A program made the translations under genes and the position numbers. The notes beneath the pieces were generated by a model, which was given only the letters and a program-made list of their open reading frames with translations, had not been told where the DNA came from and did not search any database. This document shows, in pieces, positions 1 to 5,699 of a stretch of DNA of 5,699 nucleotides. Every line of letters begins with the position of its first letter. Position 1 is the first letter of the stretch. This DNA comes from an uncultured archaeon (GTDB lineage Archaea > Iainarchaeota > Iainarchaeia > Iainarchaeales > CSSED10-239). The stretch covers positions 1-5,699 of the forward strand of contig CAYXWT010000044.1 of assembly GCA_964468895.1 (NCBI GenBank). The letters are read 5' to 3'.

Positions 1-11
1 CGCCAGAAGCT
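1..11 (+). repeat. Partial copy (3' 11 nt, CGCCAGAAGCT) of the boundary repeat; identical to 5689-5699, and 8 of the 11 nt (CGCCAGAA) also occur at 4201-4208
   Basis: Exact 11/11 string identity between the first and last 11 nt of the window. The 11-mer has 6 G/C in a window that is otherwise about 75% A+T. Confidence 0.7.
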
Positions 12-51
12 TTGTTATAATTAATTATTATTTTAATTCAATTAATACTTT

Positions 52-58
52 TTCTGGC
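52..58. repeat. TTCTGGC, inverted complement of GCCAGAA at 2-8, separated by a 43-nt almost pure A/T spacer
   Basis: Direct reverse-complement match of 7 nt. If the left arm is extended using the copy at 5678-5696, about 7 of the next 11 positions also pair once one base is bulged. Confidence 0.45.
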
Positions 59-259
59 TGAGAAATCAAGAATATTAAATTTGATAAATGTATTCTGTGA
101 TATATTATTACATACAAATTTTTTTTAAGTACTTAATTCAAATGTTTTTCTGTTTTCATATTATTATAGTTTTTAATAATTTTAATTATAGAAATAGGTA
201 AATAAAAGCTTTGTATTAAACTTGAAATTGCAAAGTTGTTTTCTTTTTTTGATGATAAT

Positions 260-280
260 CTATGTAACAATGTTACATAG
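260..280. promoter_or_regulatory. Perfect palindrome CTATGTAACA-A-TGTTACATAG; candidate PadR autoregulatory operator
   Basis: Arms of 10 nt with a 1-nt centre. It contains ATGT-N9-ACAT, close to the ATGT-N8-ACAT motif reported for PadR-family operators. It sits immediately upstream of a TATA-like box and 34 nt upstream of the padR-like ATG. Confidence 0.6.
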
Positions 281-281
281 G

Positions 282-290
282 TTTATATAT
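282..290 (+). promoter_or_regulatory. TATA-box-like TTTATATAT centred about 27 nt before the ATG at 314 (implies a leaderless or near-leaderless mRNA if the host is archaeal)
   Basis: Spacing to the start codon matches archaeal TATA-to-TSS spacing, and no Shine-Dalgarno motif precedes 314. Caveat: many A/T strings in this region look TATA-like. Confidence 0.35.
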
Positions 291-313
291 TTTTTGTTAT
301 ATATATTTCTATA

Positions 314-673
314 ATGGTTACTACAGAATATATAGATAATTATCCTGAAAAAATATGGTTGCAATTTCTTATATTGAGATTGATTTATGAAAATCCAACT
401 TATGGATATCAGTTAATTAAAGATATTCATAAAATAAGTCAAGGGAAACATATAGTTAAATCAGGTACTATGTATACTACTCTTAGACGAATGGAAAAAA
501 ATAATTTATTAAATTCTGTTTGGGAAAAAAATAAATCAGGTCCTAATAGTAGGATTTATAATATAACTATAAAAGGTAAATTAAAACTTAAGAGTTTACT
601 TAAAATGGTTGTTGAAAGAAAAACAATAATAGATAAAATGATTAAATTCTATAAAAAAGAATTTAAAGAATAA
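314..673 (+). CDS. PadR-family transcriptional regulator (short, ~119 aa, winged helix-turn-helix)
   Basis: Hallmark PadR pattern: YGYQLIKDI ... GTMYTTLRRMEKNNLLNSVWE ... G..RIYNITIKG, followed by a C-terminal helix. Size fits the short PadR subfamily (LmrR-like). Confidence 0.85.
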   Translation: MVTTEYIDNYPEKIWLQFLILRLIYENPTYGYQLIKDIHKISQGKHIVKSGTMYTTLRRMEKNNLLNSVWEKNKSGPNSRIYNITIKGKLKLKSLLKMVVERKTIIDKMIKFYKKEFKE

Positions 674-701
674 TAAAATATATGATTAATTAAGATGATT
701 T

Positions 702-926
702 ATGAAATTAAAACTACATAAAATTTTATTATGGATTACTATGATATCTTTATTTTTTTTAACTATTTCAACTATTCCTTTATTAGTTAGTTTTTTAAAA
801 AATGTTGATGTTAAGTTTCCAATTTTGGTGAATATTCACGTTTGGTCTGGTGTTGTATTATTATTAGTTATATTAATTAGAGTTTGTATTAATCGTAAAA
901 AATTAAAAATTATGCTTACTAATTAG
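702..926 (+). CDS. Small integral membrane protein, two predicted TM helices, unknown function
   Basis: Hydrophobic stretches ILLWITMISLFFLTISTIPLLVSFL and VWSGVVLLLVILIRVCI, with a basic tail RKKLK. It is co-oriented and lies 28 nt after the PadR stop. The H-x-W-x-G before TM2 is faintly reminiscent of DUF4405-type membrane proteins (weak). Confidence 0.55.
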   Translation: MKLKLHKILLWITMISLFFLTISTIPLLVSFLKNVDVKFPILVNIHVWSGVVLLLVILIRVCINRKKLKIMLTN

Positions 927-943
927 TTATTTTTTTAAAAATT

Positions 944-949
944 AAGGAG
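944..949 (+). promoter_or_regulatory. Shine-Dalgarno-like AAGGAG upstream of the surface-protein gene
   Basis: AAGGAG lies 4 nt before TTG at 954 and 13 nt before ATG at 963. Confidence 0.45.
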
Positions 950-953
950 TTTA

Positions 954-2150
954 TTGATTTGCATGTTTAATAAAAAAATTGTTTTTGTATTGTTTTTATT
1001 TTTATTTCTATCTTTTATTTCTGGATTCGTTTTTTCAGAAAGGTATATAGATAGTTCTTATGTACAAGTTATTGCGCAAGAAGTTAGCCCTGAACCAGTA
1101 GAACCAGGACAAGATTTTTTAATAAAAGTTAGAGTTCATAATTTTGGAACCGTTGATGCCACTAATGTAAAGGTTAATCTAAATTTAAATTATCCTTTTT
1201 ATCTAAAAAATACTAGTGAAGCGTTTGTTGATTTTAATAAAATTTGTTCTAATTGTTCTGCAGAAAATACATATTATTTTACAGTAGATAGTTCTGCAGT
1301 TTCAGGAATCTATCCTATACATTTTAATATTTCTGAAATTAATAATAAAACTGTATCTTTTAGGCCTCAAATAATAGATGTTTCTATTTTAGGTAAACCA
1401 GATTTAGTTTTAGAAACTAAACAAATTGATAAAAATATTTCTGCAGGAGATATTTTTAATATTTCTTTTCTTTTAAAAAATATCGGTACGGGAAACTCTA
1501 GAAATATTAAAGTGATTCCTAATTCAAAAGATTTTATGCTTTTAGGATCAAATACTAAATGGTTTGACAAATTAGGTCCTAATCAAGAGGTGTTATTTGA
1601 TTTAAATTTTATCTCTAATAAAGATCTAGTTGCAAACAGTTATTTATTCCCTATAAATTTAGAATTTTTAGGAGAAAAACAAAATATTCATACTTATTCT
1701 TATAACATTGGAATTAATCTTTTAGGAAAAGCAGATTTGTCTTTACAAAATCTAAAAATTAATCCCGTAAATCCTAATTTAAAAGATTTAGTTAGTTTTG
1801 AAGGTGTTATTGAAAATATTGGAAATGGTAAGGCAAATAATGTTTTTGTAGAATTATTTATTTTAAATGGAAATAATTATAAATATTTTATTGGACAATT
1901 AAATAAAGATGATGATGCTCCATTTTATTTTAATAAAATTAAATTTGATTCTTATGGAGATAATGAAGTTATTTTAAAAATAAACTATAATGATGATTAT
2001 GGTAATTATGAACTAGAAATACCATTTAATCAAAATGTGCAAAAATCTTCTAATTTGTCTTTATTTTTAATAATTTTGATGTTATTTTTAATTTTAGGTT
2101 CTAGTTTATATTTCTTAAAATTTAAAAAAAACAAAAAAACAAAAAAATAA
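954..2150 (+). CDS. Secreted, C-terminally membrane-anchored surface protein with three CARDB / COG1361 (S-layer-domain-like) beta-sandwich repeats
   Basis: N-terminal signal-like segment KKIVFVLFLFLFLSFISGFVFS. Three units with a 111-aa period (GKPDLVL at aa 147, GKADLSL at aa 258), each with the CARDB-like signature: P.PVEPGQDF.I.V.V.N.G...A.NV.V, then ISAGDIF.ISFLLKNIGTGNSRNIKV, then NPNLKDLVSFEGVIENIGNGKANNVFV. C-terminal TM LSLFLIILMLFLILGSSLYFL plus a KFKKNKKTKK tail. At least 7 N-x-S/T sequons. The start may be TTG 954 or ATG 963. Confidence 0.75.
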   Translation: MICMFNKKIVFVLFLFLFLSFISGFVFSERYIDSSYVQVIAQEVSPEPVEPGQDFLIKVRVHNFGTVDATNVKVNLNLNYPFYLKNTSEAFVDFNKICSNCSAENTYYFTVDSSAVSGIYPIHFNISEINNKTVSFRPQIIDVSILGKPDLVLETKQIDKNISAGDIFNISFLLKNIGTGNSRNIKVIPNSKDFMLLGSNTKWFDKLGPNQEVLFDLNFISNKDLVANSYLFPINLEFLGEKQNIHTYSYNIGINLLGKADLSLQNLKINPVNPNLKDLVSFEGVIENIGNGKANNVFVELFILNGNNYKYFIGQLNKDDDAPFYFNKIKFDSYGDNEVILKINYNDDYGNYELEIPFNQNVQKSSNLSLFLIILMLFLILGSSLYFLKFKKNKKTKK

Positions 2151-2169
2151 AGAAATGATTTAGACTTAC

Positions 2170-3369
2170 ATGAATAAAAAAGATTTAAAGTTAATGTTTT
2201 TTTTAGCTTATAAAAATATTGTGAAAAGCAAATCTACTTTTTTAGTAATCGTAGCTGTAATGGCTATGAGTTTTTTATCAATCACTTTTTTTTCTGCAAT
2301 TATTGATGGTCTTAGTTATGAGTTTGAAGACTCAATGATTAAAGGTCAAACTGGTCATCTAATGATTGAACCCTCATCAGAGGAAAGTTTCATTTTTAAT
2401 TCAAATAGGCTTGAAAAAAATATATTTAAAATTCCTGGAGTAGTTGGTGTTGCTTCAAGATTAGAATCAAATATTTTAATTACTTTTAAAAATGAAGAGT
2501 TAGGTGCTCCAGTATTTTTCATTGATCCTGTTGATGAACTAAAAGTATCTAATTTTCACGAAAGTATAATTGAAGGTAGTTTTCTTTCATATAAAGATAC
2601 AGATGAAATTATTGTTGGTGCTGATTTATTAGAACAGTATGCTCCAAAAGATGATACTAAAAAAAGATTTAATCTTAGAGTAGGAGATCATGTTAATTTA
2701 ACCTTTAATAATGGATATACAAAAGAATATAAGATTAAAGGAATTTTTAAAACTGGTTCGAAATTTAGTGATGATAAAATATTAATTAATAAAAAAGAAT
2801 ATTTTTCTATATTTAAAAAAGAAAATATATCTCATAAAATACTTATTAAACTTCCGTCAAGAGGTTTAGAAAAAGAGTATATTCAAAAAATAAAAGCTTT
2901 AGGTGTTACTGAACAAATAAATCCATGGGAAACAAAAATTGGAATGATTAAACAATTTATAGGAAGTCTTCAAATTACTAATCAAATTACTGGTTTTATT
3001 GGTTTATTAACTGCATTTGCAACCATATATATTATTATTTTTATAAATGTTACAAATAAAAGAAAACAAATTGGTATTTTAAAAGCAATTGGTATAAAGA
3101 AAATAATTATACTAGGCTCATATATAATGCAATCTTTTATGTATGGTTTTATAGGTGTTATTTTAGGAAATATTATTATGCAAATTTTATTAGCTTTATT
3201 TGTAAGTCATCCTTTAGCTATGCCAATTGGAGATGTAGTTCCTTTATTGACAACAACTAAATTATTAACTACATCTTTGATTTTAATTCTTGCATCTATA
3301 ATTGCTGGTTTTTTTCCTTCAAGAAAAGCAGCTAATGATAATATTCTAGATGCTATATTTGGTGGCTAA
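2170..3369 (+). CDS. ABC transporter permease, FtsX/MacB-type (COG0577): TM1, ~220-aa extracytoplasmic domain, three C-terminal TMs
   Basis: N-terminal YKNIVKSKSTFLVIVAVMAMSFL is typical of MacB/LolC-like permeases, followed by a long soluble insert. The FtsX-domain motif KRKQIGILKAIGIKK lies between TM2 and TM3, and the terminal FFPSRKAANDNILDAI matches the family C-terminus. Confidence 0.9.
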   Translation: MNKKDLKLMFFLAYKNIVKSKSTFLVIVAVMAMSFLSITFFSAIIDGLSYEFEDSMIKGQTGHLMIEPSSEESFIFNSNRLEKNIFKIPGVVGVASRLESNILITFKNEELGAPVFFIDPVDELKVSNFHESIIEGSFLSYKDTDEIIVGADLLEQYAPKDDTKKRFNLRVGDHVNLTFNNGYTKEYKIKGIFKTGSKFSDDKILINKKEYFSIFKKENISHKILIKLPSRGLEKEYIQKIKALGVTEQINPWETKIGMIKQFIGSLQITNQITGFIGLLTAFATIYIIIFINVTNKRKQIGILKAIGIKKIIILGSYIMQSFMYGFIGVILGNIIMQILLALFVSHPLAMPIGDVVPLLTTTKLLTTSLILILASIIAGFFPSRKAANDNILDAIFGG

Positions 3370-3372
3370 ATT

Positions 3373-4062
3373 ATGATTAAAAATATTATTGAAGTAAATA
3401 AACTTGAAAGAATATATTCTAATGGTATAATTAAAACATATGCATTAAGAGATGTGTCTTTTAACATTAAGTCTGGTGAGTTTATTGCAATTATGGGGCC
3501 AAGTGGGTCTGGAAAAAGCACCTTACTTCATCAATTAGGCTTACTTGATTCACCTACAAATGGAAGTATTAAAATAGATACTGAAGATGTTTCTAAATTA
3601 ACAGATAATGACAAAACTAATTTTAGATTAGATAAATTAGGTTATGTTTTTCAATCTTATAATTTATTGCCAGAACTTAATGTTATTGAAAATGTTTTTT
3701 TAACTTCAATGGCAAAAGGACTAGAACCTCAAGATTATATTCTAAGAGCAAAAGATATTCTTGAAAGAGTAGGTCTTAAAGATAGGCTTTATTATTATCC
3801 TTCTGAGCTTTCTGGAGGTCAGCAACAAAGAGTTTCTATTGCTAGAGCATTAGTTAACAAACCTAAAATATTATTTGCAGATGAACCTACTGCAAATCTT
3901 GATTCTGATTCTTCTAAAGATGTAATCGATTTGTTTAGAAAATTAAATAAAGAAATTAATCAAACTATTGTAATGGTAACTCACGAGATTGATGAAGGTA
4001 AAAAAGCAGATAAGATAATTTGGATTAAAGATGGAATTTTAGATAATTCTAAGAATGTTTAA
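3373..4062 (+). CDS. ABC transporter ATP-binding protein, COG1136 (LolD/MacB/FtsE-like) class
   Basis: Walker A GPSGSGKST (nt 3496-3522), Q-loop VFQSYNL, signature LSGGQQQR (from nt 3808), Walker B ILFADEPT (from nt 3868) and H-loop VTHE. It starts 3 nt after the permease stop, with GGTGG 7 nt upstream. Confidence 0.95.
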   Translation: MIKNIIEVNKLERIYSNGIIKTYALRDVSFNIKSGEFIAIMGPSGSGKSTLLHQLGLLDSPTNGSIKIDTEDVSKLTDNDKTNFRLDKLGYVFQSYNLLPELNVIENVFLTSMAKGLEPQDYILRAKDILERVGLKDRLYYYPSELSGGQQQRVSIARALVNKPKILFADEPTANLDSDSSKDVIDLFRKLNKEINQTIVMVTHEIDEGKKADKIIWIKDGILDNSKNV

Positions 4063-4090
4063 TTCCTTGTCATATTGAGTAAAAAATAAA

Positions 4091-4115
4091 AAAATTAACT
4101 AAATTAGTTAATTTT
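4091..4115 (+). terminator. AT-rich hairpin AAAATTAACTA-AAT-TAGTTAATTTT followed by T-runs (4121-4124, 4129-4133, T7 at 4159-4165); candidate end of the ABC operon
   Basis: Perfect 11-bp inverted repeat with a 3-nt loop, 29 nt after the stop at 4062. Oligo-T tracts downstream fit archaeal or intrinsic termination. The stem is almost all A-T, so its stability is low. Confidence 0.35.
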
Positions 4116-4166
4116 AAATATTTTAATGTTTTTATAAGAAGAAAACAAGATAAAGTGATTTTTTTA

Positions 4167-4209
4167 AAAAAAGAATGCTTTTAACTTTTAGCTTAACTTT
4201 CGCCAGAAA
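4167..4209 (+). repeat. Boundary repeat copy A (AAAAAAGAATGCTTTTAACTTTTAGCTTAACTTTCGCCAGAAA)
   Basis: Ungapped alignment with 5655-5697 (offset 1488): 32/43 identical, and all 11 differences are transitions. Invariant blocks are GCTTTTAAC and CGCCAGAA. Confidence 0.7.
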
Positions 4210-4233
4210 GATTACTGCCCAAAAAAGGTTTAT

Positions 4234-4254
4234 TTGTGCACTTAGAGTGCACAA
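4234..4254. promoter_or_regulatory. Palindrome TTGTGCAC-TTAGA-GTGCACAA (twin GTGCAC hexamers) abutting a TATA-like TTTAAAAA (4255-4262); candidate operator for the ATPase gene
   Basis: Perfect 8-bp arms with a 5-nt spacer. The TATA-like box is centred about 26 nt before the ATG at 4285. The layout matches the PadR promoter at 260-290. Confidence 0.45.
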
Positions 4255-4284
4255 TTTAAAAACAATTCTATTTCTATATATTAT

Positions 4285-5547
4285 ATGGATAAAAAATATC
4301 TTGAGCAAATAGTTCTAGATCAAAAACAAAGATTATCTAAATTAGAAAATGGATATTCTAGAGATAAGCTATCAGAAATATCGAATTTAATAAAACCTAA
4401 AATAAATATAGTTGTTACTGGTCATAGAAGAGTAGGGAAATCTACTTTTCTTTTACAATGGATGAATAAATATTATAGTTCTGACTTCTATTATCTTGAT
4501 TTTTCGGACGAAAGATTAGCTGGCTTTGAAACTAAAGATTTTCAAGTATTATATGAAATATTTCTTGAAAATTTTGGAGAAAAAAAGGTTTTCTTTTTTG
4601 ATGAATTACAAGGTAAAAGATATGATTGGAACAAGTTTGTAAATAGATTATATTCTGAAGGAAAAAGATTCTTTATAACTGGTTCTAATGCTGAATTATT
4701 AAGTAAAGAAATATCCACATATCTTACAGGTAGACACTTTGATATTAGCATGTATCCTTTTTCTTTTAAAGAGTATTTAGGTTATAATAGTTTCAATAAA
4801 AACTATAAATCTACTTCTGGAAAAGTAGAAGCAATTAAATATTTTAATAAATATATAAAAGAAGGGGGATTTCCAGAAGTTATAGTTTATGGAAATAAAG
4901 ACATATTAGAAAATATATATCAAGATGTTATAAATACAGATATTTTATCTAGATATAATATAAAAGAAGAAGTTGAATTTAAGAAAATGGCTTTGTTTCT
5001 AATATTTAACTTTTCAAAAGAATTTTCTTATACTTCTTTAAAGAATAACTATAATTTAGGAAGTACACATACTGCTAAAAAATATGTTTCATATCTAACT
5101 AATACATATTTATTATTTGAGTTAACAAAATATGATTATTCTTTAAAAAAACAAGAAAACTATAGTAAAAAAATTTATGTTATAGATCCTGGACTAATTA
5201 ATCAATTAGCTTTTGCTTTTTCAGATAATATTGGTAGATTATATGAAAACGTAGTTTTTATAGAACTTTTAAGAAGAGGAAAAAAAGTTTATTTTTTTAA
5301 GGATAAACTTGATTATGAAATAGATTTTATAACTTTAGAGAAAAATAAAATTGTTTCTTTGATACAAGTATGTTATGACTTAAATGATATAAAGACTAAA
5401 GAAAGGGAAATAAGAGGATTATTATCTGGATTAGATGAATTCAAACTAAAAGAAGGAATAATAATAACTCGAGATTTAGAAAAAGAAGAAAAAATAGATG
5501 ATAAAATAATTAAATTTACTCCTTTATGGAAATGGTTATTAGAATAA
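4285..5547 (+). CDS. COG1373-type AAA+ ATPase (AAA_14 N-terminal domain + DUF4143 C-terminal domain)
   Basis: Walker A GHRRVGKST (nt 4420-4446), Walker B FFFDELQ (D-E at 4600-4605), ITGSNA sensor-like motif, and a C-terminal YEIDFI ... IQVCY segment aligning with the EVDF ... IEVK nuclease-fold motif I recall for this family. Length of 420 aa is typical. Confidence 0.85.
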   Translation: MDKKYLEQIVLDQKQRLSKLENGYSRDKLSEISNLIKPKINIVVTGHRRVGKSTFLLQWMNKYYSSDFYYLDFSDERLAGFETKDFQVLYEIFLENFGEKKVFFFDELQGKRYDWNKFVNRLYSEGKRFFITGSNAELLSKEISTYLTGRHFDISMYPFSFKEYLGYNSFNKNYKSTSGKVEAIKYFNKYIKEGGFPEVIVYGNKDILENIYQDVINTDILSRYNIKEEVEFKKMALFLIFNFSKEFSYTSLKNNYNLGSTHTAKKYVSYLTNTYLLFELTKYDYSLKKQENYSKKIYVIDPGLINQLAFAFSDNIGRLYENVVFIELLRRGKKVYFFKDKLDYEIDFITLEKNKIVSLIQVCYDLNDIKTKEREIRGLLSGLDEFKLKEGIIITRDLEKEEKIDDKIIKFTPLWKWLLE

Positions 5548-5654
5548 AGTTATAAATATAAAAACAAAGATTAATGTGGAAAACTTTTTTATTAAAAATA
5601 TTTATAAATTAATTTTAATAATAGTTAATAGGCATTTTAATAGTTATGAATAAT

Positions 5655-5699
5655 AAAAAGGAGCGCTTTTAACCTTTGGTTCAATTCCCGCCAGAAGCT
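5655..5699 (+). repeat. Boundary repeat copy B (AAAAAGGAGCGCTTTTAACCTTTGGTTCAATTCCCGCCAGAAGCT); the last 11 nt equal window positions 1-11
   Basis: See copy A. It begins 108 nt after the ATPase stop, as copy A begins 105 nt after the ABC ATPase stop. Confidence 0.7.

Follow-up and report, generated by a model that had tools for sequence, protein, structure and literature searches.

A variable genomic island with tRNA-Thr-derived repeats in Iainarchaeum-like archaea

Mobile elements of the SSV (Sulfolobus spindle-shaped virus) type are defined by an attachment (att) site lying inside the open reading frame (ORF) of the integrase (int) and by the partition of this gene into two parts, Int(N) and Int(C) (PMC3293823). 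SSV1 occupies a tRNA-Arg gene, and the att repeats of SSV-type elements are reported to cause 'gene capture' (She et al. 2004, as cited in PMC3293823). Two bacterial situations are also comparable, namely the tycheposon islands of Prochlorococcus, which are tRNA-anchored additive islands formed by repeated integration (10.1101/2020.12.28.424599), and the cis-mobilizable elements (CIMEs) and tandem accretion at att sites described in the systems of integrative conjugative and integrative mobilizable elements (ICEs and IMEs) of Firmicutes (PMC5704250). Here we compare with these systems a stretch of 5,699 nucleotides from an uncultured archaeon (GenBank assembly GCA_964468895.1, contig CAYXWT010000044.1, positions 1 to 5,699), hereafter called the window, which begins and ends with the same 11-mer. 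We conclude, with a probability of roughly 0.65, that the window is part of a variable genomic island anchored at tRNA-Thr(GGT), the blocks of which are moved via this 11-mer core.

The terminal repeat and its relation to tRNA-Thr(GGT)

The 11-mer CGCCAGAAGCT is found at both termini of the window (1-11 and 5689-5699), the G+C content of which is 17-29%. When up to two mismatches are allowed, it has three matches against 0.14 expected, a count reached by none of 200 dinucleotide-preserving shuffles; this bears out an earlier note on the same DNA, which had considered the chance identity of the termini negligible. The core is the 3' tip of a conserved intergenic repeat of 37-39 nt, hereafter abbreviated as REP, a full unit of which, (GA)GCGCTTTTAACCTTTGGTTCAATTCCCGCCAGAAGCT, closes the window at 5661-5699. 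Together with the preceding A-run, this copy B (AAAAAGGAGCGCTTTTAACCTTTGGTTCAATTCCCGCCAGAAGCT, 5655-5699, plus strand, core at 5689-5699) is retrieved by repeat-family search and has an nhmmer E value of 1.4e-16. A decayed copy A (AAAAAAGAATGCTTTTAACTTTTAGCTTAACTTTCGCCAGAAAGA, 4167-4211, plus strand) belongs to repeat family D1 with 76% identity and has an nhmmer E value of 6.1e-11, whereas the core at 1-11 (plus strand) forms the last part of a REP or of a tRNA, the remainder of which lies upstream of the window. The spacings of 4,200 bp (1 to 4201) and 1,488 bp (4201 to 5689) that had been reported between the three cores are correct.

The origin of the core became evident in other contigs of the same locus (numbered here with the prefix L). 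Positions 1399-1470 of L008, a Logan contig assembled with k=31, constitute a tRNA-Thr(GGT) recognized by ARAGORN and Rfam (68 bits), the last 11 nt of which are identical to window positions 1-11. The same 11-mer also ends the tRNA-Thr(GGT) called by ARAGORN in L021, L022 and L029, with Rfam support of 68-73 bits in L008 and L029. It comprises the last 4 nt of the 3' strand of the T-stem, the 7-nt 3' strand of the acceptor stem and the discriminator base of this tRNA. The similarity extends further upstream, for the 3' end of the tRNA (GGTTCAATTCTCGCCAGAAGCT) and the last 22 nt of REP are identical at 21 of 22 positions from the T-loop to the discriminator. The 5' half of REP (GCGCTTTTAACCTTT), which is common to all its copies, is not the sequence that the tRNA has at this place; a derivation of REP from the tRNA by an internal deletion of 18 nt (AGAGYGC..AACCTT.GG plus T-loop to 3' end) is plausible by eye, with an ambiguous alignment. 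The repeats of the window are thus att-like and derived from the 3' end of tRNA-Thr. The intact tRNA lies at the island's proximal end, beside an AdoMet synthase gene of the archaeal type (PF01941), and is followed by a block called X in L022, by the window block W in L008 and by Int(C) in L021 and L029.

We rejected the possibility that the window holds a tRNA, a split-tRNA half or a tRNA-like RNA, since ARAGORN and Rfam find no tRNA and no RNA family in it, not even at REP, and REP alone folds like shuffled sequence (z = 0.20). A 47-nt fragment of the tRNA found elsewhere at the locus might also be taken for a split-tRNA half; this is disfavoured with respect to its interpretation as an attR carrying Int(N), and an intact tRNA allele with identical flanks exists.

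Inverted part-copies of the repeat occur at the start of several blocks. At the junction of REP with the first block of the window, GCCAGAAG (2-9) pairs with the inverted core copy TTTCTGGC (51-58), forming an 8-bp stem within positions 2-58 of the plus strand (z = -2.3 for the fold). Block X has at the corresponding place a different inverted repeat of 12 bp, GGTTCAATTCCC / GGGAATTGAACC (z = -3.0), and the starts of blocks Y and Z carry GGAATT as an inverted part-copy of REP. These part-copies presumably have a role at the block starts.

The genomic context of the window was recovered by exact-protein look-ups. The linear contig L002 (8,336 bp) contains its whole sequence, with 100% identity, at positions 396-6094, and the same sequence recurs with 99.98% identity in L003 and in L001, a contig of 19.7 kb. 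Inspection of the parent contigs on both sides, as the earlier note had proposed, revealed other genes at either end, with a full REP directly upstream of position 1 in L001, L002, L003 and L006. The upstream flank is block X, a CARDB gene on the opposite strand, whereas position 5699 is followed in L001 and L002 by block Y, a surface protein of 1,905 residues, and in L003 and L004 by block V, another gene. The left end of the window is the first base common to the variants in which a tRNA ending with T or a REP ending with C precedes it, while the right end is the last base common to the variants continuing into Y or V; the Logan contig L005 begins at the same base as the window. Both ends are therefore exact points of divergence between co-occurring strain variants or assemblies, and we infer that in the assembly graph the window corresponds to an unbranched path of maximal length. 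It has the same 11-mer at both termini because these points of divergence fall in successive copies of the core.

The earlier note had offered three readings of this arrangement: a circle of 5,688 bp with an 11-nt overlap, an integrated element flanked by att-like repeats, or part of an array of gene cassettes. The last two were essentially right when merged, although the origin of the repeat in the 3' end of tRNA-Thr(GGT) could not be seen in the window alone. A small circular replicon or excised episome, as in the first reading, is exceedingly improbable. The identical termini speak for it, and a block excised from the island would be a circle with a single REP, so that a transient circular form would fit the mechanism discussed below; yet the window sits in three longer linear contigs with differing flanking genes, an overlap of 11 nt is shorter than the assembly k-mers, and no junction joining the end of W through REP to its start is present in any contig. 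In addition, the window carries no Rep, partition, packaging or capsid gene, and it has no relatives in IMG/VR or PLSDB beyond the generic similarity of its ABC ATPase. Being neither self-closing nor free of flanking DNA, it lacks these properties of a circular plasmid or virus, and we rejected this identity.

An array of variable blocks and the integrase element at its head

The copies of REP were located by fuzzy search combined with an nhmmer profile. Within each contig all significant matches have a single orientation, the same as that of the tRNA, and they separate blocks of approximately 0.3-6 kb that encode surface proteins, a Lnt-like enzyme, HicB/HicA pairs, a zinc-finger protein, NYN and Fic proteins and more. 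The blocks are paired differently in different contigs: X is followed by W in L001, L002, L003 and L006, W by Y in L001 and L002 or by V in L003 and L004, Y by Z in L001 and L012 or by V in L013, and Q by V in L010. All these junctions lie directly after ...AGAAGCT.

Comparison of nearly identical strains confirms that whole blocks are present or missing. Contig L007, in which the tRNA fragment with Int(N) leads directly into W, differs from L001, in which X and a REP are interposed, by exactly the 2,018 bp of block X, the flanks of which have a single mismatch on each side, among 159 nt upstream and 2,785 nt downstream. In the JGI contig L022 the intact tRNA is directly followed by block X (68 of 68 positions identical), and the 1,400 nt upstream differ from those of L008 at a single base; L022 is the empty site for the integrase element described below, hereafter element E. 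The tRNA fragment with Int(N) directly precedes block U in L035-L039, five independent assemblies including a metagenome-assembled genome (MAG), while in L013 the same block is placed after V and HicAB. Entire blocks thus distinguish strains that are more than 99.6% identical, and the breakpoints lie at the core. On either side of W the neighbours vary, and one variant of the array has no W (L035-L039); an exact deletion of W alone was not seen among the contigs compared. The two parts of W, called W1 and W2, occur together in every contig read, with no break at copy A between them, so this decayed copy seems fixed or inactive. On these grounds we consider the structural side of our interpretation, namely tRNA-Thr-derived repeats in a one-directional array with breakpoints at the core, to be very probable.

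REP remains 95-97% conserved in lineages in which the DNA of the ATPase genes is 73-83% identical, a difference that argues for constraint on the repeat. A pattern search retrieved REP in one contig only among 185,579 species genomes and in four JGI contigs, with an exact pattern that misses diverged copies such as those of L014 and L018. A dispersed intergenic repeat of the REP/MITE type has many copies in both orientations around the genome; all the copies seen in the metagenome contigs available for this organism and its relatives belong to this type of locus and share one orientation.

In strains with more than 99.9% identity elsewhere, single bases also vary in or next to the core, and all the variants of the tRNA retain the pairing of the T-stem. 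The base just before window position 1 is T in L008 and L007 and C in L001, L022 and REP; further variants are TTTCC in L021, a CGAC core at position 13916 of L001, which travels with block Z, and TGTC upstream of block U. Such variants resemble traces left by recombination with different partners.

At the head of the array, a small ORF of 77-97 residues with a ribbon-helix-helix-like sequence precedes the 47-nt 3' fragment of tRNA-Thr, through which it extends (..STLVRLRSRVQFSPEA). In the population of the window this ORF lies at 1-159 of L001 and 467-697 of L007, and it occupies the same place in the related lineages of L009, L014-17, L018, L019/20, L034 and L035-39. We initially regarded it as an independent regulator, an identity that was dropped once its in-frame partner had been found, which makes it the N-terminal half of an integrase, Int(N). 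The partner was found via the AdoMet synthase gene neighbouring the intact tRNA, in contigs L021 and L029 (k=141), where an ORF downstream of the intact tRNA-Thr continues in frame from the peptide encoded by the tRNA itself (..RLRSRVQFPPEA followed by S[VI]TISLD..). This Int(C) reads ..RLRSRVQFPPEA, then SVTISLDAFK...LLLLFSGIRISEG..., and is located at 1-522 (minus strand) of L021 and 4575-5477 of L029; L029 and L002, the contig containing the window at 100% identity, are from one and the same sample.

The complete C-terminal parts, proteins P0133 and P0134, reach 96 bits against PF16795, 'Archaeal phage integrase' (cut-off 27), and match the structures of the catalytic domain of SSV1 integrase (3VCF, 3UXU and 4DKS) with an E value of 2.5e-8, the motifs SGxRxxE, KYxRK, GR and HY being in register. 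The integrase reconstituted from the 77-residue Int(N) and Int(C) has 353 amino acids and, compared with fusellovirus integrases, is 37% identical to that of SSV2 (E 6e-17). Reading of Int(N) through the 47-nt fragment is seen in L007, L001, L009, L014, L018, L019, L034 and L035, and that of Int(C) out of the rebuilt tRNA in L021, L029 and L030. Element E is integrated in tRNA-Thr(GGT) with its int gene split into Int(N) and Int(C), and it thus presents both hallmarks of the SSV type, a tyrosine recombinase of the SSV1 family and an attP inside the int ORF. The unit forming the window has no int fragment at either end of W1 or W2 and is not itself an SSV-type element.

Several further observations concern element E. 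The cargo beside Int(N) varies, with a NUDIX protein in L007, a protein of 389 residues in L035 and membrane ORFans in L019. A second Int(C) of SSV type (L030, 1394-2289), from another sample and 62% identical, also overlaps tRNA-Thr(GGT), which suggests that integrases of this lineage are specific for tRNA-Thr(GGT). The start codon of Int(N) is preceded, at a distance of about 100 nt, by a REP copy with a degenerate core (L007, 328-370; L035, 1176-1217; also L036-L039), so that in free element E a REP would lie next to the integrase promoter, in a position like that of attI. A search of IMG/VR for the free, unintegrated element or a REP copy returned no relevant match.

Possible mechanisms of block exchange

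The island is a one-directional array in which each block ends in REP, and blocks would be gained, lost and re-paired by recombination within or beside the core. A block would excise as a circle with one REP and re-insert at the tRNA or at any other REP. The likeliest catalyst would be a recombinase acting in trans, for which the SSV-type integrase of element E is the best candidate; mobilisation of the blocks in trans by this integrase has, in our estimate, slightly less than an even chance. A site-specific process is favoured by three features, namely that the homology between tRNA and REP amounts to only 10 + 11 nt, that REP is better conserved than the DNA of the ATPase genes and that block starts carry inverted part-copies of REP.

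Several points weigh against this interpretation. The action of the integrase on REP is deduced, and the att site of element E consists of 47 nt beginning in the anticodon stem, of which REP shares only the last 22; the integrase may therefore not use REP. The single-base differences by the core (T or C before the 11-mer, C or A at position 3) travel with different partners and thus define no consistent crossover position. No circular W molecule was seen in the contigs, and the evidence comes from metagenome assemblies alone, at the level of contigs. One of these, L008 with its intact tRNA before W, is possibly chimeric, since the tRNA and its fragment share up to 47 nt (at least 36), more than its k of 31. 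Finally, every variant could be derived by deletions between direct repeats, for which ordinary homologous recombination suffices, from a long master array with the order tRNA, E, X, W, Y, Z..Q, V, HicAB, U.

These considerations lead to an alternative in which the REPs are left over from integrations long past and the blocks are deleted or duplicated, without any dedicated recombinase, by RadA-type recombination or by slippage during replication between direct repeats of 22-45 nt. Besides the master array, the inconsistent crossover position and the absence from REP of most of the 47-nt att of element E agree with it. We nevertheless consider it unlikely, if the most serious of the competitors, since it does not explain why one and the same 37-nt unit, conserved above the level of coding DNA, ends every block; why events between tRNA and REP, with 22 nt including a mismatch (10 + 11 perfect) at their disposal, are both precise and recurrent; or why several blocks start with inverted parts of REP, as is the case at recombinase sites. 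The proposal that the alternative junctions are chimeras assembled at the repeat, with a real genome of one fixed gene order, draws on the shortness and identity of the repeats and on the inability of a k of 31 in L008 to phase the identity of up to 47 nt between tRNA and fragment. It is very improbable, for most variant junctions are found in JGI contigs or MEGAHIT contigs with k=141 (L001, L002, L003, L007, L010, L012, L013, L021, L022 and L029), the k-mers of which span a repeat of 37-47 nt, and they recur across independent samples or assemblies, that between W and V in two and that between the tRNA fragment and U in five. REP might also be mainly a signal at the level of RNA or transcription (a tRNA-like processing site, a terminator or a promoter cassette), its link with rearrangements being secondary. 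Its position between genes, after an A-run and with T-runs, the CCA that follows some copies and its mimicry of the acceptor and part of the T-loop would suit such a function; however, REP folds no better than its shuffles and is silent in ARAGORN and Rfam, its orientation follows the tRNA rather than the neighbouring gene (block X lies on the opposite strand), and it appears confined to one locus, as far as a pattern missing divergent copies can tell. We hold this possibility, too, to be improbable.

Cargo, neighbourhood and comparison with known systems

The window comprises the blocks W1 and W2, separated by the decayed REP, with six genes all on the plus strand. W1 (12-4200, approximately 4.2 kb, plus strand) carries, as judged from ORFs and Pfam, an operon of a PadR regulator and an ABC exporter: PadR (314-673; Pfam PadR, 1.6e-18), a small membrane protein of 74 residues (702-926, from the ORF list), a membrane protein with CARDB domain (954-2150; 1.7e-10), a FtsX permease (2170-3369; 6.5e-14) and an ABC ATPase (3373-4062; ABC_tran, 6.4e-37). 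W2 (1.49 kb) carries a COG1373-type ATPase (4285-5547) with the domains AAA_14 (4.5e-32) and DUF4143 (1.5e-24). Upstream of its gene there is a palindrome, TTGTGCAC-N5-GTGCACAA (4234-4254), which forms a 9-bp stem in the fold, and a related TGTGCAC motif occurs at the corresponding place before the homologue in L009.

Pfam scanning of the six proteins detects no integrase, transposase or Rep, in agreement with the earlier note, which had named the COG1373 ATPase as the only candidate enzyme that could act on DNA. A role of this ATPase as the mobilising enzyme finds no support and we rejected it: the protein matches the candidate phage-defence family PDC-S01 of PADLOC (E 8.1e-106, 352 bits), it behaves as conserved cargo, and the same samples contain an SSV-type integrase gene at this tRNA locus. 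Its homologues, each following a REP or REP remnant, are found in L009 (1732-3042, 82% amino acid identity), L014 (4054-5313, 62%) and also L015. The ATPase is probably a conserved cargo gene of the island and a candidate for defence, rather than a recombinase. None of the window's genes has a mobility function; the PadR-regulated ABC exporter and the candidate defence ATPase that they encode are cargo.

Two other blocks bounded by REP are each made up of a single giant secreted or surface protein, of 1,905 and 1,129-1,137 residues, with Fn3_assoc/CHB_HEX_C_1 repeats (L001, 8030-13747 and 14288-17677; L012, 228-3641); variation of the cell surface is therefore part of what the island carries. 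HicB/HicA pairs form REP-bounded blocks of approximately 0.55-0.6 kb in three lineages (L013, 942-1385, minus strand; L018, 641-1083; L034, 4112-4628).

The host is an AT-rich DPANN archaeon, the closest named relatives of which are MAGs labelled 'Candidatus ainarchaeum sp.', a label that we take to mean Candidatus Iainarchaeum (phylum Iainarchaeota), and 'Candidatus Diapherotrites archaeon'. The same architecture, a tRNA fragment with Int(N) followed by REP-separated blocks (HicAB, NYN, Fic, ATPase), is found in the related lineages of L009, L014, L018 and L034. In such lineages a GC-rich module (~AACTGGTTTCGCTCRGTTAACRCGCAAT) forming a small hairpin follows the core or lies inside long variants of REP (L014, 2372-2442 and 3817-3850; L034, 663-695, 3132-3166, 4049-4075 and 4658-4690; L009, 1627-1690; L018, 1130-1150). 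Its loop is conserved (GTTTCGCT/GTTTCGGT/GTTACGTT), while the stems differ and stay complementary (GAGCTG/CAGCTC, TTAACCG/CGGTTAA, AATTG/CAATT); in L014-17 a copy of 82 nt is bounded on both sides by the core. The module has no match in Rfam and is absent from the window. On the side of the tRNA away from the island, a transposase gene of the IS91/Y2 type lies approximately 1.4 kb beyond the AdoMet synthase gene and 2.6 kb from tRNA-Thr (L021, 3096-4319; L029, 778-2001), and fragments resembling DDE transposases of the IS4/IS5 type, judged from their translations, flank the Int(N) region in L019 (152-1219 and 7451-7798). These transposases are other mobile elements, not linked to REP.

Iainarchaeum-like DPANN archaea have very small genomes, and little is known about how they acquire genes. 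The present analysis documents an actively varying, tRNA-anchored flexible island in these organisms; it also explains the terminally redundant appearance of a short contig and keeps it from being filed as a miniature plasmid or virus. If the 37-nt repeat proved to be a dedicated site used in trans, the locus would be an archaeal system of cassette capture analogous to integrons, offering a concrete handle on how symbionts exchange genes for surface, transport and defence.

The locus is like an integron in that small cassettes, most of them co-oriented, form a unidirectional array and are each terminated by a conserved repeat resembling a recombination site, that toxin-antitoxin cassettes are present (HicAB in L013, L018 and L034) and that the recombinase is encoded outside the cassettes; the REP that L007 and L035 have approximately 100 nt before the integrase start, in a position like that of attI, is suggestive at most. 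Toxin-antitoxin cassettes are known to stabilise chromosomal integron arrays. Unlike attC sites, however, REP has by inspection no RYYYAAC/GTTRRRY cores and forms no stable hairpin, so we rejected an attC identity for it. Furthermore, the recombinase found is exclusively of the SSV type, not IntI, and many blocks contain several genes and have upstream regions of their own. It is rather doubtful, and somewhat more so than the origin of the variants by homologous recombination, that the locus represents an integron-like gene-cassette system of DPANN archaea. In such a system element E would supply the platform, consisting of int with its upstream REP and the tRNA-Thr site, and integrase-less cassettes of 0.3-6 kb, each with a dedicated 37-nt site derived from tRNA-Thr, would be captured, shuffled and lost in natural populations; their cargo would be toxin-antitoxin pairs, the candidate defence ATPase, exporters and giant surface proteins.

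With SSV-type elements the locus shares element E itself, which has the PF16795 catalytic domain, an Int(C) fused to the rebuilt tRNA and an Int(N) fused to a 47-nt repeat of it. The unit of the window differs in having no int fragments and in its repeat, which shares 22 nt with the tRNA and has a 5' half foreign to the tRNA in all copies, and the host belongs to DPANN rather than to the Sulfolobales. As in the tycheposon islands, there are a proximal intact tRNA, co-oriented partial copies of it, cargo and defence genes and strong heterogeneity between strains; here, however, one homogeneous 37-nt unit replaces assorted tRNA fragments, the blocks of 0.3-6 kb have no integrase remnants and the integrase belongs to the archaeal partitioning type. 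CIMEs are likewise integrase-less modules that keep attL and attR, stand in tandem with an integrase-bearing element at a tRNA-type site and are potentially excised by its integrase, but they are decayed ICEs or IMEs, whereas the present blocks, several of which consist of a single gene, bear no trace of mobility genes, and their mobilisation is putative. With respect to tRNA-anchored islands in general, we find a repeat equivalent to the 3' end of the tRNA, a proximal and co-oriented tRNA and block polymorphism at the repeats; the cognate integrase is not inside the delimited unit, being present only in the neighbouring element E. A tRNA-anchored island with integration-site repeats is of an already known kind, to which this DPANN locus adds a case.

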